DNA of 64,000 bases from Naegleria gruberi (taxonomy: Eukaryota): NCBI GenBank assembly GCA_000004985.1, contig GG738871.1; one strand, given 5' to 3'. The notes below the pieces were generated by a model. It was not told where the DNA came from and searched no databases. It was given only the letters and a program-made list of their open reading frames with translations. This document shows positions 1-51,146 of the stretch, piece by piece; position 1 is the stretch's first letter; every line of letters starts with the position of its first letter. The position numbers and the translations under genes were made by a program.

Positions 1-402
1 CCCAAACCCAAACCCAAACCCAAACCCAAACCCAAACCCAAACCAAAACCAAAACCCAAACCCAAACCCAAACCCAAACCCAAACCCAAACCCAAACCCA
101 AACCCAAACCCAAACCCAAACCCAAACCCAAACCCAAACCCAAACCCAAACCCAAACCCAAACCCAAACCCAAACCCAAACCCAAACCCAAACCCAAACC
201 CAAACCCAAACCCAAACCCAAACCCAAACCCAAACCCAAACCCAAACCCAAACCCAAACCCAAACCCAAACCCAAACCCAAACCCAAACCCAAACCCAAA
301 CCCAAACCCAAACCCAAACCCAAACCCAAACCCAAACCCAAACCCAAACCCAAACCCAAACCCAAACCCAAACCCAAACCCAAACCCAAACCCAAACCCA
401 AA
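1..402. repeat. Terminal telomeric repeat (CCCAAA)n, about 67 units. G-strand TTTGGG points outward, so this is a left chromosome end. One variant unit (ccaaaa x2) at 43-54
   Basis: Perfect hexamer periodicity read directly. The C-rich strand is 5'->3' on the + strand at the window start. The tract ends abruptly at 402 into unique AT-rich DNA. Confidence 0.9.
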
Positions 403-1073
403 TTATATATTTTCATTTCAAGAAATACATCCGGTAGATAGTACATGGGGATATTTCAAGAGAATGGATGGAAATCTGAAAGGTATATAAACAACTCCAT
501 TTTCACTGAAATTGATATCATGGTATGTAGCCACTCTAATTAGCATATGGTATCAATTTCATGAATATTGGTTCAGTAGATATTGAGTTGTCAACTCTAT
601 CACAATACTATAGACTTTTGAAATAAAATCACAGATTATGCTCCAACTCACTCATTATACGAACAGTCATTCTAAAATCGATACCACATAGATTACACAT
701 CAGTTAAATACACTGTTAATAGTTTGGAAACAATTCGTAGTACGTACAATTAGTGAGTCAGATAATGTTCAATGTCAATAGTGCTTATATCCAAGTGTAC
801 ACTCTATCTCAATGAAAATACATCCAATCATCATGAAACTATACCATATACATTAAATCACATTTATATACATCTGGTATCAATTACATAGTGTTAGTAT
901 TGAATTCAATATGATAATAATAACAATCTGTCAAATTGTCACATTTCAACAAATAGAATATACTCCATCTCATTCATTTTACAAAATATCATACAAGCAT
1001 CAAATATGAATACACTCCTCTTGATGAGGAGAACAATCTGAGAAAGTTTCATATTCATGGCTCAATATCTTTC

Positions 1074-1123
1074 NNNNNNNNNNNNNNNNNNNNNNNNNNN
1101 NNNNNNNNNNNNNNNNNNNNNNN
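1074..1123. other. Assembly gap (50 N)
   Basis: Run of exactly 50 n. Confidence 0.99.
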
Positions 1124-1385
1124 CCCAACCCAAACCCAAACCCAAACCCAAACCCAAACCCAAACCCAAACCCAAACCCAAACCCAAACCCAAACCCAAA
1201 CCCAAACCCAAACCCAAACCCAAACCCAAACCCAAACCCAAACCCAAACCCAAACCCAAACCCAAACCCAAACCCAAACCCAAACCCAAACCCAAACCCA
1301 AACCCAAACCCAAACCCAAACCCAAACCCAAACCCAAACCCAAACCCAAACCCAAACCCAAACCCAAACCCAAACCCAAACCCAA
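1124..1385. repeat. Second (CCCAAA)n block, about 43 units, same orientation as the terminal tract. Either an interstitial/subtelomeric telomere repeat or a scaffold joining artefact
   Basis: Hexamer repeat read directly, immediately after a 50-N gap. First unit is cccaacc. Confidence 0.85.
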
Positions 1386-1678
1386 GGACTCAATTATCTC
1401 GGGAACGGCGAATTAAAAAAATTAGTATTTTCTATCATTTCTTCCAAAACTCATATAGATTGATATTTGAGTGAATCATAACCCGGAACGTTCTCGTCGC
1501 AGAGATAATAGATATACTATGAATTTTTGAGTTGACCATTTTTGATTATCTCAATAACTACGGGGAGTTTTTTCACGTGTATTACAGAATAGATATATTA
1601 ATGTATTTAATAATACATATATAAGAACTGGATAGCCAATATTAGCCGTTCGTTTTATGTGATTAGGTTTTCGCCATA

Positions 1679-1697
1679 CCCAAACCCAAACCCAACC
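1679..1697. repeat. Short degenerate telomere-like remnant (cccaaacccaaacccaacc)
   Basis: Seen directly, about 290 bp internal to the second block. Confidence 0.5.
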
Positions 1698-1899
1698 TAA
1701 AGGTCAGACCCAACTTTTTGACTTTTATTCATCTTAATTAATTATCTCAATAAATACTCATTATAAATCAATATATTATATATCAATATACTCCAAATTG
1801 AATATATAATCATATAATAACATAATATTACATCATTATAATGACTTTTATAAGTTAATTTCATATAATAGATTAGACAATTATAATATCAATGATAAC

Positions 1900-4800
1900 N
1901 NNNNNNNNNNNNNNNNNNNNNNNNNNNNNNNNNNNNNNNNNNNNNNNNNNNNNNNNNNNNNNNNNNNNNNNNNNNNNNNNNNNNNNNNNNNNNNNNNNNN
2001 NNNNNNNNNNNNNNNNNNNNNNNNNNNNNNNNNNNNNNNNNNNNNNNNNNNNNNNNNNNNNNNNNNNNNNNNNNNNNNNNNNNNNNNNNNNNNNNNNNNN
2101 NNNNNNNNNNNNNNNNNNNNNNNNNNNNNNNNNNNNNNNNNNNNNNNNNNNNNNNNNNNNNNNNNNNNNNNNNNNNNNNNNNNNNNNNNNNNNNNNNNNN
2201 NNNNNNNNNNNNNNNNNNNNNNNNNNNNNNNNNNNNNNNNNNNNNNNNNNNNNNNNNNNNNNNNNNNNNNNNNNNNNNNNNNNNNNNNNNNNNNNNNNNN
2301 NNNNNNNNNNNNNNNNNNNNNNNNNNNNNNNNNNNNNNNNNNNNNNNNNNNNNNNNNNNNNNNNNNNNNNNNNNNNNNNNNNNNNNNNNNNNNNNNNNNN
2401 NNNNNNNNNNNNNNNNNNNNNNNNNNNNNNNNNNNNNNNNNNNNNNNNNNNNNNNNNNNNNNNNNNNNNNNNNNNNNNNNNNNNNNNNNNNNNNNNNNNN
2501 NNNNNNNNNNNNNNNNNNNNNNNNNNNNNNNNNNNNNNNNNNNNNNNNNNNNNNNNNNNNNNNNNNNNNNNNNNNNNNNNNNNNNNNNNNNNNNNNNNNN
2601 NNNNNNNNNNNNNNNNNNNNNNNNNNNNNNNNNNNNNNNNNNNNNNNNNNNNNNNNNNNNNNNNNNNNNNNNNNNNNNNNNNNNNNNNNNNNNNNNNNNN
2701 NNNNNNNNNNNNNNNNNNNNNNNNNNNNNNNNNNNNNNNNNNNNNNNNNNNNNNNNNNNNNNNNNNNNNNNNNNNNNNNNNNNNNNNNNNNNNNNNNNNN
2801 NNNNNNNNNNNNNNNNNNNNNNNNNNNNNNNNNNNNNNNNNNNNNNNNNNNNNNNNNNNNNNNNNNNNNNNNNNNNNNNNNNNNNNNNNNNNNNNNNNNN
2901 NNNNNNNNNNNNNNNNNNNNNNNNNNNNNNNNNNNNNNNNNNNNNNNNNNNNNNNNNNNNNNNNNNNNNNNNNNNNNNNNNNNNNNNNNNNNNNNNNNNN
3001 NNNNNNNNNNNNNNNNNNNNNNNNNNNNNNNNNNNNNNNNNNNNNNNNNNNNNNNNNNNNNNNNNNNNNNNNNNNNNNNNNNNNNNNNNNNNNNNNNNNN
3101 NNNNNNNNNNNNNNNNNNNNNNNNNNNNNNNNNNNNNNNNNNNNNNNNNNNNNNNNNNNNNNNNNNNNNNNNNNNNNNNNNNNNNNNNNNNNNNNNNNNN
3201 NNNNNNNNNNNNNNNNNNNNNNNNNNNNNNNNNNNNNNNNNNNNNNNNNNNNNNNNNNNNNNNNNNNNNNNNNNNNNNNNNNNNNNNNNNNNNNNNNNNN
3301 NNNNNNNNNNNNNNNNNNNNNNNNNNNNNNNNNNNNNNNNNNNNNNNNNNNNNNNNNNNNNNNNNNNNNNNNNNNNNNNNNNNNNNNNNNNNNNNNNNNN
3401 NNNNNNNNNNNNNNNNNNNNNNNNNNNNNNNNNNNNNNNNNNNNNNNNNNNNNNNNNNNNNNNNNNNNNNNNNNNNNNNNNNNNNNNNNNNNNNNNNNNN
3501 NNNNNNNNNNNNNNNNNNNNNNNNNNNNNNNNNNNNNNNNNNNNNNNNNNNNNNNNNNNNNNNNNNNNNNNNNNNNNNNNNNNNNNNNNNNNNNNNNNNN
3601 NNNNNNNNNNNNNNNNNNNNNNNNNNNNNNNNNNNNNNNNNNNNNNNNNNNNNNNNNNNNNNNNNNNNNNNNNNNNNNNNNNNNNNNNNNNNNNNNNNNN
3701 NNNNNNNNNNNNNNNNNNNNNNNNNNNNNNNNNNNNNNNNNNNNNNNNNNNNNNNNNNNNNNNNNNNNNNNNNNNNNNNNNNNNNNNNNNNNNNNNNNNN
3801 NNNNNNNNNNNNNNNNNNNNNNNNNNNNNNNNNNNNNNNNNNNNNNNNNNNNNNNNNNNNNNNNNNNNNNNNNNNNNNNNNNNNNNNNNNNNNNNNNNNN
3901 NNNNNNNNNNNNNNNNNNNNNNNNNNNNNNNNNNNNNNNNNNNNNNNNNNNNNNNNNNNNNNNNNNNNNNNNNNNNNNNNNNNNNNNNNNNNNNNNNNNN
4001 NNNNNNNNNNNNNNNNNNNNNNNNNNNNNNNNNNNNNNNNNNNNNNNNNNNNNNNNNNNNNNNNNNNNNNNNNNNNNNNNNNNNNNNNNNNNNNNNNNNN
4101 NNNNNNNNNNNNNNNNNNNNNNNNNNNNNNNNNNNNNNNNNNNNNNNNNNNNNNNNNNNNNNNNNNNNNNNNNNNNNNNNNNNNNNNNNNNNNNNNNNNN
4201 NNNNNNNNNNNNNNNNNNNNNNNNNNNNNNNNNNNNNNNNNNNNNNNNNNNNNNNNNNNNNNNNNNNNNNNNNNNNNNNNNNNNNNNNNNNNNNNNNNNN
4301 NNNNNNNNNNNNNNNNNNNNNNNNNNNNNNNNNNNNNNNNNNNNNNNNNNNNNNNNNNNNNNNNNNNNNNNNNNNNNNNNNNNNNNNNNNNNNNNNNNNN
4401 NNNNNNNNNNNNNNNNNNNNNNNNNNNNNNNNNNNNNNNNNNNNNNNNNNNNNNNNNNNNNNNNNNNNNNNNNNNNNNNNNNNNNNNNNNNNNNNNNNNN
4501 NNNNNNNNNNNNNNNNNNNNNNNNNNNNNNNNNNNNNNNNNNNNNNNNNNNNNNNNNNNNNNNNNNNNNNNNNNNNNNNNNNNNNNNNNNNNNNNNNNNN
4601 NNNNNNNNNNNNNNNNNNNNNNNNNNNNNNNNNNNNNNNNNNNNNNNNNNNNNNNNNNNNNNNNNNNNNNNNNNNNNNNNNNNNNNNNNNNNNNNNNNNN
4701 NNNNNNNNNNNNNNNNNNNNNNNNNNNNNNNNNNNNNNNNNNNNNNNNNNNNNNNNNNNNNNNNNNNNNNNNNNNNNNNNNNNNNNNNNNNNNNNNNNNN

Positions 4801-7086
4801 NNNNNNNNNNNNNNNNNNNNNNNNNNNNNNNNNNNNNNNNNNNNNNNNNNNNNNNNNNNNNNNNNNNNNNNNNNNNNNNNNNNNNNNNNNNNNNNNNNNN
4901 NNNNNNNNNNNNNNNNNNNNNNNNNNNNNNNNNNNNNNNNNNNNNNNNNNNNNNNNNNNNNNNNNNNNNNNNNNNNNNNNNNNNNNNNNNNNNNNNNNNN
5001 NNNNNNNNNNNNNNNNNNNNNNNNNNNNNNNNNNNNNNNNNNNNNNNNNNNNNNNNNNNNNNNNNNNNNNNNNNNNNNNNNNNNNNNNNNNNNNNNNNNN
5101 NNNNNNNNNNNNNNNNNNNNNNNNNNNNNNNNNNNNNNNNNNNNNNNNNNNNNNNNNNNNNNNNNNNNNNNNNNNNNNNNNNNNNNNNNNNNNNNNNNNN
5201 NNNNNNNNNNNNNNNNNNNNNNNNNNNNNNNNNNNNNNNNNNNNNNNNNNNNNNNNNNNNNNNNNNNNNNNNNNNNNNNNNNNNNNNNNNNNNNNNNNNN
5301 NNNNNNNNNNNNNNNNNNNNNNNNNNNNNNNNNNNNNNNNNNNNNNNNNNNNNNNNNNNNNNNNNNNNNNNNNNNNNNNNNNNNNNNNNNNNNNNNNNNN
5401 NNNNNNNNNNNNNNNNNNNNNNNNNNNNNNNNNNNNNNNNNNNNNNNNNNNNNNNNNNNNNNNNNNNNNNNNNNNNNNNNNNNNNNNNNNNNNNNNNNNN
5501 NNNNNNNNNNNNNNNNNNNNNNNNNNNNNNNNNNNNNNNNNNNNNNNNNNNNNNNNNNNNNNNNNNNNNNNNNNNNNNNNNNNNNNNNNNNNNNNNNNNN
5601 NNNNNNNNNNNNNNNNNNNNNNNNNNNNNNNNNNNNNNNNNNNNNNNNNNNNNNNNNNNNNNNNNNNNNNNNNNNNNNNNNNNNNNNNNNNNNNNNNNNN
5701 NNNNNNNNNNNNNNNNNNNNNNNNNNNNNNNNNNNNNNNNNNNNNNNNNNNNNNNNNNNNNNNNNNNNNNNNNNNNNNNNNNNNNNNNNNNNNNNNNNNN
5801 NNNNNNNNNNNNNNNNNNNNNNNNNNNNNNNNNNNNNNNNNNNNNNNNNNNNNNNNNNNNNNNNNNNNNNNNNNNNNNNNNNNNNNNNNNNNNNNNNNNN
5901 NNNNNNNNNNNNNNNNNNNNNNNNNNNNNNNNNNNNNNNNNNNNNNNNNNNNNNNNNNNNNNNNNNNNNNNNNNNNNNNNNNNNNNNNNNNNNNNNNNNN
6001 NNNNNNNNNNNNNNNNNNNNNNNNNNNNNNNNNNNNNNNNNNNNNNNNNNNNNNNNNNNNNNNNNNNNNNNNNNNNNNNNNNNNNNNNNNNNNNNNNNNN
6101 NNNNNNNNNNNNNNNNNNNNNNNNNNNNNNNNNNNNNNNNNNNNNNNNNNNNNNNNNNNNNNNNNNNNNNNNNNNNNNNNNNNNNNNNNNNNNNNNNNNN
6201 NNNNNNNNNNNNNNNNNNNNNNNNNNNNNNNNNNNNNNNNNNNNNNNNNNNNNNNNNNNNNNNNNNNNNNNNNNNNNNNNNNNNNNNNNNNNNNNNNNNN
6301 NNNNNNNNNNNNNNNNNNNNNNNNNNNNNNNNNNNNNNNNNNNNNNNNNNNNNNNNNNNNNNNNNNNNNNNNNNNNNNNNNNNNNNNNNNNNNNNNNNNN
6401 NNNNNNNNNNNNNNNNNNNNNNNNNNNNNNNNNNNNNNNNNNNNNNNNNNNNNNNNNNNNNNNNNNNNNNNNNNNNNNNNNNNNNNNNNNNNNNNNNNNN
6501 NNNNNNNNNNNNNNNNNNNNNNNNNNNNNNNNNNNNNNNNNNNNNNNNNNNNNNNNNNNNNNNNNNNNNNNNNNNNNNNNNNNNNNNNNNNNNNNNNNNN
6601 NNNNNNNNNNNNNNNNNNNNNNNNNNNNNNNNNNNNNNNNNNNNNNNNNNNNNNNNNNNNNNNNNNNNNNNNNNNNNNNNNNNNNNNNNNNNNNNNNNNN
6701 NNNNNNNNNNNNNNNNNNNNNNNNNNNNNNNNNNNNNNNNNNNNNNNNNNNNNNNNNNNNNNNNNNNNNNNNNNNNNNNNNNNNNNNNNNNNNNNNNNNN
6801 NNNNNNNNNNNNNNNNNNNNNNNNNNNNNNNNNNNNNNNNNNNNNNNNNNNNNNNNNNNNNNNNNNNNNNNNNNNNNNNNNNNNNNNNNNNNNNNNNNNN
6901 NNNNNNNNNNNNNNNNNNNNNNNNNNNNNNNNNNNNNNNNNNNNNNNNNNNNNNNNNNNNNNNNNNNNNNNNNNNNNNNNNNNNNNNNNNNNNNNNNNNN
7001 NNNNNNNNNNNNNNNNNNNNNNNNNNNNNNNNNNNNNNNNNNNNNNNNNNNNNNNNNNNNNNNNNNNNNNNNNNNNNNNNNNNNNN
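1900..7086. other. Large assembly gap (5187 N) lying inside the NHL-repeat gene
   Basis: Continuous n run. The ORF-track entries 1889..7540(-) and 1892..7102(+) are translations of N and are not real. Confidence 0.99.
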
Positions 7087-9753
7087 CAGTTGGGGAAGCT
7101 AGCAAAGCAAGGTTTGCAACATTATCATCTCCACTAAATCCAAATTTACCTGTTCCAGAAATTGTCTTAATACCTCCCTTAATATTATCAATCATTCTAA
7201 TCCTATTAGTTTCAGATTCCGAAATGACCATCTTGTTGTCTGTAGTTAACAGAATTTTTGTGGGATTTACATTAGCATAAAAGACATTCGATCCATCTGC
7301 AATACCTCCTACAAGTGGTTCCGTTCGACCATTTGATAAAACTAAATTTCCTGCTGTATAAACAAAATATGGCACTTCTGAGCATAAACCAATCGGAGAT
7401 AGTATTTTTTCATGGAAGGATGAAATTACACCTCCATTAATTATACGAATTTTGTTATTAGCAGTATCAGCAATATAAATAGATTGGTCAATGACATATA
7501 CCATACTTGGTAGGAAGAGTTTTGCCTGTGTTGCAACCATACCATCACCATTATATCCTTATTCTCATCAATATTCATTAATGTATTAGAAACTTACCTG
7601 ATTCACCTGTTCCAGCAATGATTTCAACCTTGAAATCATAATAAACACACAATATTCTGTGATTATAAGTATCTAATATAAATTAATGTATCCTAACTAG
7701 TAGGAAAGAGAAACTTACCTGCTACAAAGAGATTATGATTTGAAACAAACAATCCAAATGGTGAATTCAATTGAGTTTCTTTAGGATTATTGGGAACAAG
7801 GCTAGATCCAGTAATTCCATTTCCTAACACTGTACTAATAGTTCCATTGAAAAAAGATCTGACTCTATGATTGAAAGAATCTGAAATGTATAAAATTTCA
7901 GAATCATAGAATACATATTTTGGTAAGTTGAGATGAGTTTCTAATGGATTCAATCCGTCTCCATTAAATCCATTAGTACCACTTCCAACAATTGTGGTTA
8001 TTGTTCCATTAGGAAATATCATTCTAATTCTGTGGTTTCCACTGTCAGCAATGTAAATATTACCAGAATTCTTATCAAAATGAACTGAATGAGGTTTGTT
8101 TAATTGAGCATTAATTGCCAAACCTCCATCACCAGAAAATCCCTGAAATCCAATACCAGCAATAACCTCTACCATTTCGTTTGAGGTATATTTGAGAATT
8201 CTATGATTATCAGTATCCGCAATATAAATCGTAGAAAATGAATCGAGACAGAATATTCCTGTTGGATTTTTCAAAATTATTGAGGACGGAGGACCTTTCT
8301 TTCTTAATCTATCACCAGTAATGGAACCAGCATATAAACAACCGTTTCCTTTAGATACATCTATTTTTTGAATCATTTTAGTTGATGAAACGTATAAATC
8401 AGAATTTCTGAGTTGTAATGCATTGGGAATGAATTTTGAACGGATAAAACTCTCATTAGTCTCTTCAGAAGAATTCCAACATGAAACATTTGAAAATTTG
8501 TCTATTAATGGAATGGTAGACACAGTTCCAGTTGTCAAATCCACTTTCTTTAAATTAAATCCAAAATTAGAATCAGCAATTAATAGTTCATTACTTGATT
8601 GATTGAACGCAATAGCAGCTATTGAATCAAACACTCTATTTTGCACATTAGTACCATCAATAATAGCTCCATTAATATTTAAAATTGGATAAACTTGTTT
8701 AAGGGACAAATCAGCTTTCATTATAGCTTGTGCATGAAAAATATGATTTGGTGAGAAAAAAGTTGGTGATACAATAGATGAATCGAACAACAAAATGGTC
8801 GAAATATTCCCAGTAGTTTGATTAATCACTTTCCAATATCCTAAATTTGAAAGATAAATTGAATCGTCAATAGGAGAAACTGCAAATCCATACACAAAAT
8901 TAAGTTTAGCATCCAAAGCAGGTCCATCATTGGTATTTCCATCAAATTTTCTCCCTTGAATGACAGTCATCCACCATGTTTGTAAATTAATCTTGAATAT
9001 TGAGAATAAATCACATCCATACAAGTATCCCTTGTGATATCTTATATTCGAAATATAAGTTGAAAACATTGTTTCGTTTGAAAAGCCATCTTTCTTGGTT
9101 AGTGTAAATCCATCTCGCAAACTCATAAACTTAATAATTCCGTTTAAATCAACTCTATATAGGTTTGATTCATCACAAATATACAAGTTTCCAATAGGAT
9201 CCCTAGAAATTGAACCAATTTTGGTAAAAATGGTATTCGAAAGTGCTGAACCTTCCTGAATGGTAGTGGAAGTTCCTAACTGCTTGGAAAGAAGAATTAA
9301 ATTTCCATTTTGAAATTTGTAGATCTGCTTGTTGGTAGCAATATAAATAGTGTCGTATGAAGTTTCGTCCACATGAAAACTAGTAATGGTGAGATAAACG
9401 GTAGTTGCACTATTGATATCACCAGTAGAAACCGAATTCTCGGTCATACAACCAGAATAACAACCAACCAATAATTTTCGATCACCAGAAGTTTGATTAA
9501 ATTTAAAAATACGAAAAGAAGATTCCTGAAAATAAATAATTTCTGGCTGATTTTCGGATTGGTATGCATTGGCAAAAGCTGTTGAAAATTTGCCTACACC
9601 ACTGATAGGTTCCCATCTATACGCAACCAGTTTCGAATAACCAAGCTGAACAAACAAGAATAAACTCAGCAAAATGAGCAGACGCATTTTTCTTTTGATT
9701 CCAATACACATATGATTGATGACTTTAGTGCACCATTTAAAGTTTCTGATCAT
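7087..9753 (-). CDS. Secreted NHL-repeat protein, 5' part of a gene whose 3' part is lost in the N gap. Exons (minus strand): 9753 (or Met at 9687)..7719, 7672..7598, 7557..<=7087. Introns are 46 nt (7718..7673) and 40 nt (7597..7558)
   Basis: 686-aa ORF with a signal-peptide-like MRLLILLSLFLFVQLGYS after an internal Met. Repeated NHL consensus, e.g. YIADTDNHRILKY, VIAGIGFQGFSGDGGLA, YIADSGNHRIRMI. Exon joins are chosen so the NHL repeat reads through: ...NLFVAG|DTYNHRIL... and ...IIAGTGESG|YNGDGMVATQAKL.... Donors are CAG|GTAAGT and acceptors ATTAG| and ATAAG|. Confidence 0.75.
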
Positions 9754-10563
9754 TACATTTGAAAATTAATCTAACAATAAATTTACATTGATTGTAATGT
9801 TGTGGAGGCTTGAAAAATGAAAAGGTTTGTAGATGGAGAAAATTCACATCATCAACACATGAACTACACAGTTGTCGGTGGTAAATATAATGGTAGAGAA
9901 TAATATAATAAACATATTATGAATTGTTGTTTTATTATATTGTTTGAAACTTACGGTGCATAGCGTGAAATATCGGAACTTGGTAAATTGACAACATGAC
10001 GAAAATCTGATAATAAATATGATGTTTATTATCTATTTAAATAGTAGTACTAAAAGACATGATTCAAGTTGGTGAAGTACATGCTTAGTTATGATCCATG
10101 TTATTTTTGTTTTTCAAAATTCACATGTACCTATCCCTATCATAACTTGACCAAAATTGATTAGAGAAAGTTCTCCTACCTACTATTGACCATTCCGAAC
10201 AATACTACATTGACAGTTTTCCAACTTGTCCAGTAGATCCGGCAGTAATGATGAATTTAGTGAAAACATTTCATCAAAATTACATTACTAAAAATTAATT
10301 TCCACAAATACTATTATTATATTGATGGAAAACAATAATGACGATGGTTGGTGAATGATCCGATGATGGAACACCAAATTGTGAATTTCCATCATGAAAA
10401 ATAAATTCCAATTTCATGATGATAATTCACCAATAAAAATTACTATTATTACTATTATATAGATCATGTTGAGATGATGATGTGAAAGTTTGGTGGTTTC
10501 ATGATGTAAACCACTCCGAAATCATCATATCCTCCTGAGTAGAAGAATGTTTTTTTTATGAAA

Positions 10564-10613
10564 NNNNNNNNNNNNNNNNNNNNNNNNNNNNNNNNNNNNN
10601 NNNNNNNNNNNNN
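10564..10613. other. Assembly gap (50 N)
   Basis: Run of 50 n in the intergenic region. Confidence 0.99.
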
Positions 10614-10701
10614 CAATCACTTCCGAATATTTCCTGGTACTCTAATATTTCATCAAATAATTTGCAAAACTTAATGTTATTGAGAATTTTTTGCTCCCTC
10701 A

Positions 10702-13700
10702 CTAAACAGTCATTAATTCAACTTCTTTTTTGGTGGCTATTTCAGGCTGTTTCTTTCTTCTCAAACACTTAACAATAATAATTACTAAAATACTAATGAT
10801 GACACAACAGCAACAACATATACCTAATCCAAGTAACCCAAATAGCCCATACAACTCAGAATTGGATTGGTTGCTATTTGGTATTGATATTGGCAATGTA
10901 ATTGTTGATGTGGAAAGAGTTTTTTCCACCACCACTAATGATGTAACATCTTTTGAGCAATTACAATGTATTAATGAATTGGAAACAATTAGAGAGCAAT
11001 TTAGATTACCTTCACTGAATAGATTATCTATTGGAATACATTCAAGAGTTGAAATGATATTTGTTTTTTGTTGTTTAACTGTTTCACCTGAGCTCTCAAA
11101 ATAGTTATTCACATTAATATTTGAAAAGTTGTAATCATTACGAATGTTGAAGGTAAATGAAATATCAGCAGCATACACCTTATCCAGAAATACAATCTTA
11201 GTGAGTAATCTATAGCTCTGTTTCAATTCAAGTTGTTCAAACTCTGAAACTTGGATATTCTGTGTAGTTGAAATTTGATTCAGATAATCAAAGACACCCA
11301 TATAATCTTCCACTGAGAAAAATGATGTCTCTAGAACAGATCTACTTGGAACATTAGGATCAATTCTATTGAATACAAGAGTGCTATTTCCATCAGAGGA
11401 AGTTATTGTCTTTTTCATTTGATTCTTGTAACTCAAGAGAGAAAATATTGAAAAATGTGAAAGATGTACATGGTAATCCTTTTGACCGACATTATAATTT
11501 CTCAACAAGACATTAGTGAATTTCTTCATTGAATTCAAAACTCCATATCTATAATTTTGTCTGAGTTCACTACAGTTTGTTAATAATCTTATAATATTAT
11601 CAAACAAGCTGTTGCACAATGTTTCAACACCATAAGCTACTCTGAATTTAGTATTCTGATTGGCCAAGTTAATGATTCTCTCTGTCAAATTGAAAAATTT
11701 ATCAAATGGAAGTGATTCAATAGAGTGGCAATTTGAAATTAATGATTCCAATCCAAAAACGTAAACGCTGAAATGAATATCCGAAATTAACTCCAAAGGA
11801 CTTTTCTGATCTAATCCAATAGCCATGCTATTGATCATTTCTTCTCTCAATCCATATGCAACGTCCATGTTCAAGTTTCTTGCTTGGCTCAACTGGGCAA
11901 TCATTAGTTCTGAAGTTCTTGAAATTGTAGCAGAATTGAAAACTAATTTAGCACTGTCACTTGGTAGGTATGATGCAGCATAGGATTGCCATGACTTTAC
12001 TTTGCTTTTAACATTTGATAGAGATGCTGCTGCAGGAGTTAAGATTTCAACAGTTTTGATAAACTCAACAGATGCTCCTGTATCCAAATCAACAATGTCA
12101 ACAAATGTATCCATTTGTTTTGAAAAAAATGGAGAAGGAAGGTATGAAGAAAACTTTTCTCCTAAATTGTAAAGTGGAATTTTTGTTCCTGACTTGTCGT
12201 CAATGAATCCAAAAACAAAATCAATTGATTTTTCTGTATTTTGACACCCAGGACAAGAAAATGAGAATTGAGTCTCTAATGCATATCCATATGATGGATT
12301 AATATAGCAGAGACATGATTTTGGAGATTTGACAAGTTTGAATTTGTAAGAAAATATTGATGATAGATTATTTCTTCTATCTGTTACTTTGAATAATATT
12401 TCATTTTCTGTATCCTCTATGAAGGTGGAAAGTGAAAGGATTAATGATGAGGATTTTGATGGATTAACTGACATTTTGGAAATCATCGAGTCAGTCAATG
12501 TAGCACCATTGATTGTCCATTCTCTGATCATATCATCTTCAGTTGTGTATTTTTCATCTCCTCCCAAAATAACGGATAATTGTAAACTCAAGACTTCACC
12601 TTTGATAACTTTCACTCTGTTTGGTTTGACAGAAATTAAACTAATCACAGGTGGAATCAATAATTCCGTACTTGGAAAATCAATATCTACTGATTTTGAT
12701 ATGTAACGTATTCCTTTTTGGATTGACAATGTTAAAGTAACTTTTGAAAGTGACGATTTTTGAATAGTACATTTTGGAGACTTCAAGTTTGAACATTGGT
12801 TTAAAATATTTGAAATTAATGAATCCTGACATGAATTTTTTGAGATTCTGTCAAAGCAAGACCAAGTCCATGAATCAGAAGTTGATACATCATTATCTGG
12901 ATCTGAATATTCAACATTAGTTTCAGCTTGATTTGTATTCAAATTGGAAAGATAAATATTGACTGATAAATCTCTTGATTTGCTGGATATTGGAATAAGT
13001 AATGTTGCATTTGAATTTGAATTAAATTTTGATATTGCTTTAACACCAAATAAAAAGGATTCATCTTGGCTATTTGAAATTCCAGTTATAACTAAATCAT
13101 TGTTAACATCTATCTGATAATCAATGGTAGAACCTGATGCTTGGTACCAAATATATTCAAATTCCTTGTTTTCAAAATAGCAAGCAGGTAATTCAATAGA
13201 TTTCTTTACAACTATTGGAAGAGAACTTTTCTCAATATTGATTAATGACATTTTACTTGTCAGCATTGAAAGTGTTGGATGTGGAACAAATGATTTAGAA
13301 ATTTCAATAAATTGCTTTTCACTCTTTGAACCACTGAGAGAACTTTCTACAATTAATCCCAATACATACATTCCTGAAATGGAAATGTTGTTTGAATTCA
13401 AAGTGGAATTGAAATTACTTAAAGATATTTTTTCTAGACTGAAATTCGGATCTGGGGACGATTCAATTGACCAAATAAATTTGACTGGTTTCAAATCTCC
13501 ACAATATGATCCTGATGCATCAATTAATATTTCTTCACATGGACTGATACTTTTCTTATATGCAACACTAATGATTGGTTTCACTGGATTATTGGAAGGA
13601 AGTATAGTAACGGATAACGGGCAATTAATGTTAGAAAGTTCATTGTTATCAAGTGCATTTACATTCAAAGTAATATTTAGGAAGGGCAATAAAGAATGTT

Positions 13701-18688: not shown

Positions 18689-20413
18689 ATGTCTCAAATA
18701 CCTCAACCGATGCACGAAGTCAATGACTTGAATCAAACAACTACATCAAAAGAAATACTTTCTAAAATGATAGTTTATAATGCCCTTCGTTCAAATGATA
18801 ATAATTCGTCTAATTCAACAGATTCGTCTCTGGCAAGTATCACTGGAATTAAGCCTTCTACTGAAATACTTTCATCATTTCAAACTCTGGATCTTTCAAC
18901 ACTTTCTCAATCATATGCCATTCTATTAATCATTAGAAAATTCATTGTTCAGGGTGGGTGCCCATTTTGTAATAGAAGAATGACTCAAATCAATGAATGG
19001 AGAAGATCATTATTGCAATTGGGAATTGTTCCGGTCATTCTTCATTCTGAAAGTGTTCAAGATGGAAATTTGTTTTTCAAAGAACTTGTTAATCCTCAAC
19101 TCAGAGATATTTGGAGAGTTTCAGATCCTTCATATGAAAACACCATTCAATTTTGCAAATCATCTGATTCAGGAACAACTCCATTGCAATTTGTGGATTA
19201 TGATAAATTTTATCCCATTAAGAAAATTACAAAACTCGTTCCAGTGTTAGCACAAGGTTACTTTGATCCTGCTGACAGATATAAATTGGAAAAGGGCATG
19301 AAAATTGATAAGAGTTCATTGGAAGTCAAGGCAAGAATATTATTGATTAAGAATGATAAGGTGATCAAGACATGGGATCATGAAAAACATGAAAATGCAC
19401 CTGATGTGCTTTCAGATGTGATTATGAGATTAGATTGGTTGCCAAGAGAATTAAGCATTGGAGATTTCGAAAGTGAGAATGAAAATAAGGTTGAAGATGA
19501 ACCACATAAAGAATCTTCTGATACAAATCCAGATCATGTCCAAGTTTCAATAGATGATGAAGAAAATGATCCAAGCAAATATTCAACTCCACCAAATTCC
19601 ATGAATTTTCTCAATCAAGACATCAATCAAAAAGACAATCAAACCAATGAGGAATTAATTGAAATTGAACCAAACTCTCCAACATCCCCATCCTCTCCCA
19701 CCAAAACCCTTAATTCCTTATTGGACACTCTCCATACCAACATTGATATTTACAAGAAGGAAAAGAGCAGAAAATTTGAATTTAAGAAAATTTCACCACA
19801 ACAACAGCAAGAAGAATTGAAAGAAAAAACTGAAAAAGCAAAACAAAAATTTAATGATTTCAAAGCTAAGAAATCAAAGGAATCAATTGGATGCTTTGCA
19901 GTGAGAAGGGGTGATTCTGATAAAAAAAGTCAAGCAGTTTCTTTGGAAGATTTGGGGCAGAGCGTTGGATCTTTGGGGAGACTAATCCAAAGTGAAAGAA
20001 AGAGAAAGTATTTGAAATTGTTTAGTGCAAGAGAGTATAATGTGGAATCAGTGTTGTTTTGGGAGGATATCAACTTGTTTTATAAGAAATTATTCACATG
20101 TTCAAAGCTTTCGAATAGAAAAAAGGAGAAAATTGTTGAACATTCGAATAGAATTGCTAAAAGGTACTTATTGGATGAAGATAGTTTGTTTATCCTAAAC
20201 ACTAATAAGAGATTGAAAGACATCGTAAGAGAACATCTTCCACACAGAATTTCAGATCTTAAAACTAAAACAGATATTGCAAATGCAGAAACTCTATTCG
20301 ATTCAGTCCTTTTGGATGTAATGGCACATGTCCTTTCGGATATTTATGTTAGATTCTTATTCTCTGATGAGTACAAACAAATGAATGTTGAATTAGGTTT
20401 CACAACACAATAA
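18689..20413 (+). CDS. RGS-domain protein (574 aa) with an N-terminal CPFC (CxxC, thioredoxin/glutaredoxin-like) motif region and an acidic, low-complexity middle
   Basis: ATG at 18689. C-terminal RGS signature ...FSAREYNVESVLFWEDINLFYKK...DIVREHLP...ETLFDSVLLDVMAHVLSDIYVRFLFSDEY. N-terminal GGCPFCNRRM. Confidence 0.7.
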   Translation: MSQIPQPMHEVNDLNQTTTSKEILSKMIVYNALRSNDNNSSNSTDSSLASITGIKPSTEILSSFQTLDLSTLSQSYAILLIIRKFIVQGGCPFCNRRMTQINEWRRSLLQLGIVPVILHSESVQDGNLFFKELVNPQLRDIWRVSDPSYENTIQFCKSSDSGTTPLQFVDYDKFYPIKKITKLVPVLAQGYFDPADRYKLEKGMKIDKSSLEVKARILLIKNDKVIKTWDHEKHENAPDVLSDVIMRLDWLPRELSIGDFESENENKVEDEPHKESSDTNPDHVQVSIDDEENDPSKYSTPPNSMNFLNQDINQKDNQTNEELIEIEPNSPTSPSSPTKTLNSLLDTLHTNIDIYKKEKSRKFEFKKISPQQQQEELKEKTEKAKQKFNDFKAKKSKESIGCFAVRRGDSDKKSQAVSLEDLGQSVGSLGRLIQSERKRKYLKLFSAREYNVESVLFWEDINLFYKKLFTCSKLSNRKKEKIVEHSNRIAKRYLLDEDSLFILNTNKRLKDIVREHLPHRISDLKTKTDIANAETLFDSVLLDVMAHVLSDIYVRFLFSDEYKQMNVELGFTTQ

Positions 20414-21622: not shown

Positions 21623-21696
21623 GCCGTCATAGCTCAGTTGGATAGAGCACAGGACTTCTAATCCTGGGGTCGTGGGTTCGAGCCCCATTGTCGGTA
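21623..21696 (+). tRNA. tRNA-Arg(UCU): tRNA-Arg (anticodon UCU)
   Basis: Cloverleaf read by hand: acceptor GCCGTCA/TGTCGGT (one U-U mismatch), D arm GCTC-AGTTGGATA-GAGC, anticodon stem CAGGA/TCCTG with loop CTTCTAA, T arm GTGGG-TTCGAGC-CCCAT. Followed by a T-run (atttttaatttt) as a Pol III terminator. Confidence 0.8.
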
Positions 21697-23241: not shown

Positions 23242-24180
<939 letters not shown>

Positions 24181-25163: not shown

Positions 25164-25253
25164 TCTCCAACCTCAGTACTGATGTGGCTCGACGATGCTT
25201 AACTTCTCAAATCGGACGGGATGAGGTGCATTCATCGTGATATGGCCGTAGCC
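25164..25253 (-). rRNA. 5S rRNA gene, copy 1. The 5' 90 nt are present; the 3' roughly 28 nt are lost in the adjacent gap
   Basis: Identical over 90 nt to the complete copy at 28525..28642. Confidence 0.85.
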
Positions 25254-28315: not shown

Positions 28316-28524
28316 ATGTGTCTATTCACTTTGCAATGTTGCTTTAGCATTGCGAATATTCAACATTTAATACAAATATATTTTCTTAAAGTATTGTGAA
28401 AATAAAAAAAGTTTATTGAATGGTAAGTTGTTTGTATACATGAATCAATTTGAATCTTGTAATGAAAATGTCTCTAAATAGAAAATAAAAGAATATTGTT
28501 AACATTTCTTAGTAAAAGGAAAAA

Positions 28525-28642
28525 GACTACAGCACCACAGGTTCCCAAGTTGTCTCCAACCTCAGTACTGATGTGGCTCGACGATGCTTAACTTCTCAAA
28601 TCGGACGGGATGAGGTGCATTCATCGTGATATGGCCGTAGCC
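28525..28642 (-). rRNA. 5S rRNA gene, copy 2, complete (about 118 nt)
   Basis: Minus-strand reading: GGCTACGGCCATATCACGATGAATGCACCTCATCCCGTCCGATTTGAGAAGTTAAGCATCGTCGAGCCACATCAGTACTGAGGTTGGAGACAACTTGGGAACCTGTGGTGCTGTAGTC. Helix-I pairing 5' GGCUACGGC with 3' GCUGUAGUC. Conserved CCGUCCGAU / AGUACU / GGGAAC / GGUGCUGUAG blocks of eukaryotic 5S. Followed by TTTTTCCTTTT as a Pol III terminator. Confidence 0.9.
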
Positions 28643-30214: not shown

Positions 30215-30285
30215 CCGTCTCGGGAGGAATCGAACCTCCGTCAATGGATTCAAAGTCCACTATGCTACCATTACACCACGAGACG
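30215..30285 (-). tRNA. tRNA-Gln(UUG): tRNA-Gln (anticodon UUG)
   Basis: Minus-strand sequence CGTCTCG-TG-GTGT-AATGGTA-GCAT-A-GTGGA-CTTTGAA-TCCAT-TGAC-GGAGG-TTCGATT-CCTCC-CGAGACG-G. Block-for-block similarity to canonical eukaryotic tRNA-Gln (TGGTGTAATGGT, GGACTTTGAATCC). Perfect 7-bp acceptor stem but an unusual C1:G72 pair. Confidence 0.75.
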
Positions 30286-32621: not shown

Positions 32622-32694
32622 CGCCCACCGTGGGGGTCGAACCCACGACCACAAGGTTAAGAGCCTTGCGCTCTACCGACTGAGCTAGACGGGC
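32622..32694 (-). tRNA. tRNA-Lys(CUU): tRNA-Lys (anticodon CUU)
   Basis: Minus-strand GCCCGTC-TA-GCTC-AGTCGGT-AGAGC-G-CAAGG-CTCTTAA-CCTTG-TGGTC-GTGGG-TTCGACC-CCCAC-GGTGGGC-G. Canonical cloverleaf with A/B boxes. T-run downstream. Confidence 0.88.
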
Positions 32695-49834: not shown

Positions 49835-51146
49835 TATTTGTTTGCAAGGAATGGAATATCTTACTGAATTGAAACAATCAACCATGTGAATCATCTAATA
49901 TTTGAATTTCTGTTGTTATTAGAGCGAGGAAACACACTAGGTACTTCCTCACGTATCAAAAATTTTGAAGGAGGGCAATAGCCAATGGCAATTGACCATA
50001 TACAGGACAGCTTTTCAGAGTGCAAGGAAAAGCGTCGACTGCATAACTTTCCAACCTTCTTGATCATTGGAAAGTCCTTCAAGGTAAGTATGAAGATTTA
50101 AGAGAGGCAAAGTGGGAATATATTTGAAGGCATTTTAATCTACAATTTTGAAATAAAAATTATGGTAGTAATTTTTAATTAAAAAGCCATTCGATATCAT
50201 TGGGCAAGTTATTTGCTCATCTTCAGTCTCAATCCAAAAATTATGATTAAGTATTGGATTAACATGATTAAGCAACTCAGAAAGAGTGTAAACAAATAAT
50301 GAATCAAAAAGCTTATTTATTTTCTTTCCATCACATGATCATTAATTTACTAATAATTAACAATCAAAACACAAACATTCATAATGATCGCCATCATCAT
50401 CAAATTAATATTTTACATTAAAGCTAGTAGACCGAGTTGATTCAACCGGTTGGGTATTAAACAAGGAGATTTGATCCTTGTCGTGATGTTTTCTCTCAAC
50501 TGGTTGATCATCCGAAGGTTGACAAATTTCTCCCTTGATGGTTCTTCCTACTCCACTGAAGGGTTTGAAAGGATGTTGTTGTTGAGGTTCTGAAGAATCA
50601 TTAGAAGAAGAGGAAGGAGGAGAGTGATGCTCCGGATCATCGAAAGGATGCCTATTCATATTCTCTCTTCAATAGATGATATATTTGTTTTATTAGAAAT
50701 GATTATTATTGGAGGGAGAAGAGTTTGTAATTTAATAATTTGGGAAAATAGCTTGTTATGTTCAATAGATGAAATTTCAATTTACAAGAATGGTATGTTT
50801 CTTTAATTGTAATTCTCGTCAACATGCTATCTATTCGAAAGTGGTAAATATTAATTGTGCTTAGTACTCAATTTTAAAAGTGGTAACACCTTACCCCGCC
50901 GCGGGTATTAGTTCACTAATTACTTGTGAAATTCGTCAATATCTTTGTGATGGGGACCTTAAAAGAAAGGTTGTTAACTTTTGTATTGTGGTCTGTGGGT
51001 AAATTGACGAGACAGGTATGGACAGGTTGCCAAATTTACAACCAGCATGAAAGGATAATAGAAGAGGTTGAAACACTTAATTTTCATACCAACAGAAAAA
51101 AACAAATCCATTCGAAACATATTTCATCACTCTCTCGGATACTACT

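Follow-up and report, generated by a model that had tools for sequence, protein, structure and literature searches.

A hexanucleotide array begins at the first base of the 64,000 bp stretch of Naegleria gruberi DNA analysed here (contig GG738871.1; hereafter the window), and it raises the question of whether this array is the telomere of a chromosome and how far the draft scaffold can be trusted as a picture of that chromosome's end. Parsed in register, positions 1–402 comprise 67 hexamers (TRF: period 6, 67.0 copies, 99% matches). The initial annotation had described about 67 perfect CCCAAA units; the number of hexamers was correct, but 65 of them are perfect and two consecutive units (43–48 and 49–54) read CCAAAA. 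These variant units could have been produced by telomerase or during replication, or they could be errors at the low-coverage end of a read. The C-rich strand runs 5′ to 3′ inward from window base 1, and the TTTGGG strand lies on the minus strand with its 3′ end pointing off the scaffold, which is the orientation of a left telomere, as had been proposed. The coordinates of the features discussed below are collected in Table 1.

Table 1. Features at the scaffold end and elsewhere in the window, and environmental contigs that carry the same repeat.
Feature	Position	Strand	Description
Terminal array, read as telomere	1..402	C-rich strand on +	65 CCCAAA + 2 CCAAAA
Two consecutive variant units CCAAAA (TTTTGG)	43..54	+	Close to distal end
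Flank of first array	403..1073	.	AT-rich, 29.7% GC, non-coding
50-N scaffold gap	1074..1123	.	Between two telomere-bearing contigs
Second telomere-type array	1124..1385	+	CCCAA then 42 perfect CCCAAA
Flank of second array	1386..1899	.	AT-rich, 26.8% GC, non-coding
Degenerate interstitial telomere relic	1674..1703	+	CCATACCCAAACCCAAACCCAACCTAAAGG
5,187-N gap	1900..7086	.	Between telomeric contigs and first gene-bearing contig
Gene model P0040	9687-7711, 7682-7596, 7564-7145, 1666-1722	-	836 aa, NHL repeats
Small RNA	28524-28642	-	
Small RNA	25168-25253	-	
Small RNA	49924-50091	-	
Small RNA	21623-21696	+	
Small RNA	30215-30285	-	
Small RNA	32622-32694	-	
JAESGV01 loci			L003, L012, L013, L019, L038, L039, L041, L042, L050, L057
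JAESGV01 loci, continued			L059, L064, L069, L080, L085, L087, L088, L093, L101, L108

The repeat was found to be confined to the scaffold end. A search for (CCCAAA)3 allowing up to two mismatches returned 109 matches in the window, all on the plus strand and all inside 1–1696, compared with none in 100 dinucleotide-preserving shuffles. Two contig ends within the window carry the repeat, and no telomere-like tract of at least 10 nt was present on either strand in the remaining sequence from 1,700 to 64,000 (approximately 62 kb). Dimers of TTAGGG, TTTAGGG, TTGGGG and TTTTGGGG were absent from the whole window, in agreement with the earlier remark that this is not one of the common telomere types. 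The unit conforms to the TnAmGo class of telomeric minisatellites in its length of 5–8 nt, its T-rich 5′ part and its 3′ run of G, and the array conforms to it in starting at window base 1 with the G-strand outward. An interstitial tract or microsatellite has non-repeat sequence on both sides, and within the window the array at 1–402 has nothing to its left. The host is the amoeboflagellate N. gruberi: two ORF products from the window are identical to the N. gruberi proteins XP_002676503 and XP_002676508, whose scaffold is 417,575 bp long.

We conclude that 1–402 is, with high probability, the telomere of one N. gruberi chromosome end as represented in a gapped draft assembly. The TTTGGG repeat of this species is real, and its candidacy as the telomere is already known. 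An in-silico survey of TnAmGo repeats in 143 genome assemblies, judged by position and orientation, named TTTGGG as a telomere candidate for N. gruberi (Fulneckova et al. 2013, Genome Biol Evol, PMC3622300); the survey, which is also the source of the genome-wide evidence for the motif, was carried out without experiments and itself states that experiments are required (PMC3622300). The repeat had been put forward as something that could help to place the organism, but since the motif was published for this very species in 2013 (PMC3622300), the present finding rediscovers an in-silico result. Among the papers searched, no later one tests TTTGGG in N. gruberi or describes a Naegleria telomerase or TERT.

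By analogy with other TnGm telomeres, telomerase would most likely synthesise the array from an RNA template with about 1.5 copies of CCCAAA, the G-rich strand (TTTGGG)n running 5′ to 3′ toward what is presumably the physical end of the chromosome. From general telomere biology, the array is expected to finish in a G-rich 3′ overhang, and proteins binding the double-stranded repeat and the overhang would form a cap and compensate for sequence lost in replication. A gene for the RNA component was sought in the window, where no telomerase RNA matched Rfam at the gathering threshold, and a permissive Rfam scan of 403–1899 gave chance-level matches only (E > 3). The degenerate relic at 1674–1703 was considered as a telomerase RNA gene on account of a TATA-like sequence upstream and T5 downstream; it is far too short, and a decayed telomere junction explains it better.

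The initial annotation treated the locus as a chromosome end, and the hallmarks of a telomere are indeed in place; the end is nevertheless not a clean single telomere, for a second array stands behind an assembly gap. That array (1124–1385), the relic (1674–1703) and the 5,187-N gap (1900–7086) had all been overlooked. The first array and its flank make up a read-sized contig of 1,073 bp (1–1073). The second array starts directly after the 50-N gap, at a contig edge and in the same orientation as the first, and the contig that it opens is 776 bp long and ends at the large gap. Within this contig the relic matches the second array's junction (1358–1387) at 87% identity. It has non-repeat sequence on both sides and is thus interstitial; the left neighbour of the second array is the 50-N gap itself. 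No similarity was detected between the flanks at 403–1073 and 1386–1899, or between either flank and the rest of the window, and an allelic relation of the two flanks was rejected for this reason. The second array and the relic are the same kind of sequence as 1–402, the order of the contigs being uncertain, and 1–402 is telomeric whichever order the two small contigs have.

Because the second array follows 50 Ns and is itself followed by the relic and the 5,187-N gap, the scaffold end can be described as two telomere-tipped contigs stacked before a large gap. The exact end structure in the draft scaffold is uncertain since the second array sits behind an assembly gap, and with the contigs stacked in this way the first 7 kb are not trustworthy as linear sequence. 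The gaps in the window fit the draft state of the public assembly (ACER00000000), whose 1,977 contigs are grouped into 784 scaffolds. The 514 bp that flank the second array also contain three copies of the short motif ATTATCTC, at 1393, 1545 and 1741, the latter two extended to ATTATCTCAATAA; the first is just inward of the telomere junction, and the third follows the relic by about 40 nt.

Two accounts of this architecture carry most of the weight. The first, to which we give an even chance, is that the arrays are two alternative ends, either haplotypes or the related subtelomere of another chromosome, which the scaffolder set in series. In that case 1–1073 would not be distal to 1124–1899, and the true telomere of the chromosome would be the array at 1124–1385. 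Consistent with this account, each telomeric contig is about as long as a single Sanger read, the two are joined by Ns alone ahead of the 5,187-N gap, and the second array begins exactly at a contig edge, although reads would normally be expected to cross an array of 258 bp that had unique DNA on its left. The lack of similarity between the flanks and the draft state of the assembly, with its 784 scaffolds, point the same way. On the other hand, mate-pair links would have been needed to place and orient the first contig, implying some physical linkage, and nested tracts are present in a gap-free contig from the environment.

That contig was found by scanning metagenome contigs for (CCCAAA)8; the 120 loci among the matches listed were each classed against the true ends of their contigs. 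Among these matches, 44 loci had a terminal array in telomere orientation and 11 had a terminal array in the wrong orientation (binomial p = 9e-6). All 20 contigs of the environmental assembly JAESGV01 among the matches listed end in (CCCAAA)n in telomere orientation (p = 2e-6), and in several of them the standard code yields ORFs longer than 1,000 aa. Sequence adjoining the arrays is shared between contigs: positions 766–2539 of L039 match 105–1878 of L050 at 92%, and 1584–3000 of L019 match 250–1665 of L088 at 93%. The first 260 bp of the gap-free contig L088 open with (CCCAAA)16 at the contig end; 130 bp of AT-rich spacer separate this array from an internal (CCCAAA)4 at 230–253, and the nested tract so formed resembles the layout of the window.

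As to the source of these contigs, L064 encodes a SET1-type methyltransferase whose best named match is from the heterolobosean Acrasis kona (E = 8e-227, compared with ~1e-61 for the next named matches). Given this closest named relative, the JAESGV01 contigs probably derive from a heterolobosean that is so far unsequenced and shares the telomere motif, and the result suggests a second heterolobosean lineage with TTTGGG-capped chromosomes, the taxonomic connection being based on a single contig (L064). In Acrasis kona, the contig that carries the SET1 orthologue begins within that gene and has no telomere. A ciliate origin of the AT-rich JAESGV01 contigs, which have longer ORFs under genetic code 6, was considered and rejected: the code-6 ORFs are low-complexity read-through with 30–42 in-frame TAA/TAG codons, and the AT-rich contigs have subtelomeric sequence in common with contigs that carry long standard-code ORFs. 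On contig L042, a Ty3-like retroelement polyprotein (229–3765, plus strand; RVT_1, RNase H and integrase) starts about 90 nt from the array and is followed by two PPR-DYW genes of the RNA-editing deaminase type (5668–8616 and 8702–11497, both on the minus strand).

The second account, which we consider a serious possibility somewhat short of an even chance, is that the order in the scaffold is real. Inward from its telomere the chromosome would then have, in this order, at least 671 bp of spacer, an interstitial tract no shorter than 43 units, a second spacer of 290 bp and the degenerate relic, a nested series that may have arisen through repeated healing of the end or through capture of subtelomeric sequence. 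The three tracts share one orientation and their decay rises inward, from perfect through perfect to degenerate. JAESGV01 contigs share subtelomeric sequence that is truncated by telomeres at different offsets, and the internal tract of L088 is located exactly where the sequence shared with L019 starts. Against a real order, the key junction is an assembly gap, and a perfect internal tract of 42 units would need a very recent origin. A broader proposal, that the stacked arrays are real and that TTTGGG is common to the Heterolobosea (Naegleria together with the Acrasis-related environmental lineage), is in our judgement rather unlikely. If it were true, heterolobosean chromosome ends would carry nested telomere–spacer–telomere modules from repeated healing or capture, and the fixed motif, with a predicted template of approximately CCCAAACCC, would be a handle for finding the telomerase RNA of this branch of Discoba.

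A reading without telomeres, in which the arrays would be ordinary hexanucleotide microsatellites of internal DNA at which the assembly broke, is very improbable. Repeats often end contigs, and (CCCAAA)n is also an ordinary microsatellite in other organisms. Internal (CCCAAA)n with n of at least 8 was seen at 65 of the 120 environmental loci among the matches listed, so at no fewer than 65 loci, and with internal tracts in this many environmental contigs the motif alone is not diagnostic of a telomere. Median GC among the matches listed was 0.53 for loci with internal arrays versus 0.36 for correctly oriented terminal loci; internal-array loci of particularly high GC include L005, L022, L046, L067 and L071 (0.63–0.71). 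A microsatellite origin is nevertheless difficult to reconcile with the placement of both long arrays at the left ends of contigs with the C-strand inward, with the absence of anything comparable across 62 kb of internal DNA, with the strong orientation bias of the environmental terminal arrays, and with the verdict of the 2013 survey, which found the repeat convincing by its position and orientation in the assembly (PMC3622300).

Lower still, and negligible in our estimate, is the chance that the contig at 1–1073 is chimeric or a contamination, for instance by a ciliate whose telomeres contain C3A3: its origin is not directly verifiable, as it has neither a gene nor a match in the rest of the window, but it lacks the CCCCAA units of Paramecium, the GC content of its flank (29.7%) resembles that of the neighbouring N. 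gruberi flank (26.8%), and the adjacent contig, tied to the N. gruberi gene contig by a public gene model, carries the same pure motif at its tip.

That gene model, P0040, has itself been affected by the structure of the scaffold end. Its last exon (1666–1722) encodes 19 aa, VKKLGLTFRLGLGLGMAKT, lies beyond the 5,187-N gap and is the relic in translation, GLGLG corresponding to CCCAAACCCAAACCC on the other strand; this terminal exon is almost certainly an annotation artefact, so that the public model reaches over a 5-kb gap and takes a spurious last exon from a telomere relic. The introns of this annotated first gene measure about 40–46 nt, within the range of 40–75 nt given earlier for the locus. 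The first gene inward of the telomere (7145–9753, minus strand) encodes a beta-propeller protein of the NHL/teneurin type. In a homologue search, the matches listed were its own record followed mostly by bacterial and metagenomic NHL proteins, with no N. fowleri or N. lovaniensis orthologue; since neither of these two species was among the matches listed, this subtelomeric gene may be specific to the lineage or have been acquired horizontally.

Further inward, a four-unit polyubiquitin gene with a 228-nt period was identified at 23242–24159 on the minus strand. N. gruberi, N. fowleri and N. lovaniensis all have a recorded protein identical to the one it encodes; the polyubiquitin loci of N. 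fowleri and N. lovaniensis are internal, not syntenic with the window and free of telomere-like tracts. Small-RNA genes are dispersed within 50 kb of the chromosome end, comprising one full 5S rRNA, one weaker 5S match, one U1 snRNA and three tRNAs; the weaker 5S match starts 5 nt past a 50-N gap, and the U1 snRNA scored just above the gathering score. A homology search with the ORF at 18689–20413 gave no match, the candidates having probably been saturated by low-complexity words.

The tract at 1–402 very probably marks one true chromosome end within a fragmented draft, and it agrees with the published motif in a lineage whose telomere biology is otherwise unstudied. Knowledge of the motif would help the search for the telomerase RNA. 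The presence of TTTGGG at the ends of heterolobosean-like environmental contigs also hints that the motif is older than the genus Naegleria.

Several known systems invite comparison with this chromosome end. In yeast subtelomeres, internal telomere tracts lie between Y′ elements. If the scaffold order is real, the tracts at 1124–1385 and 1674–1703 would likewise be internal, separated by spacers and telomere-oriented; unlike the Y′ layout, there is no repeated Y′-like element here, the two spacers are unrelated, and the critical junction is a gap.

The macronuclear telomeres of Paramecium are built from a hexamer of T and G only, presumably made by telomerase as in N. gruberi, and TTTGGG is one of their two units, as the initial annotation stated. 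There it occurs in random mixture with TTGGGG, through misincorporation at one position of the template. No such mixture was found in the terminal array of N. gruberi, in which 0 CCCCAA dimers accompany the 65 CCCAAA units and the sole variants are the two CCAAAA. The host, moreover, is not a ciliate that reads TAA and TAG as Gln but a heterolobosean with the standard code, with ORFs of up to 2,408 aa. The earlier exclusion of Paramecium is thus borne out by the missing CCCCAA, by the long standard-code ORFs, by introns of about 40–46 nt and by the window proteins identical to N. gruberi records.

With the TTAGGG telomeres of the human type, found also in other Discoba such as trypanosomatids, the N. 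gruberi array shares a 6-nt unit, a 3′ block of GGG, a terminal position and an outward G-strand; TTTGGG differs from TTAGGG by one base, with T in place of A at position 3. In the 2013 survey, TTAGGG was regarded as ancestral and TTTGGG as a derived replacement (PMC3622300). A dictyostelid source for the window, to which Asn/Ser-rich proteins and a GC content of about 33% had pointed, was rejected: the telomere unit is TTAGGG in D. fasciculatum and TAAGGG in P. pallidum, and the exact protein matches are to N. gruberi. The closest precedent is the 2013 candidate itself, which concerns the same species and the same motif and rests on the same kind of evidence, namely terminal position and orientation in a public assembly. 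The window is one instance of what the survey scored, and there is no substantive difference between that candidate and the array described here; what the present analysis adds is the local anatomy of one scaffold end and a set of environmental contigs with the same terminal repeat.
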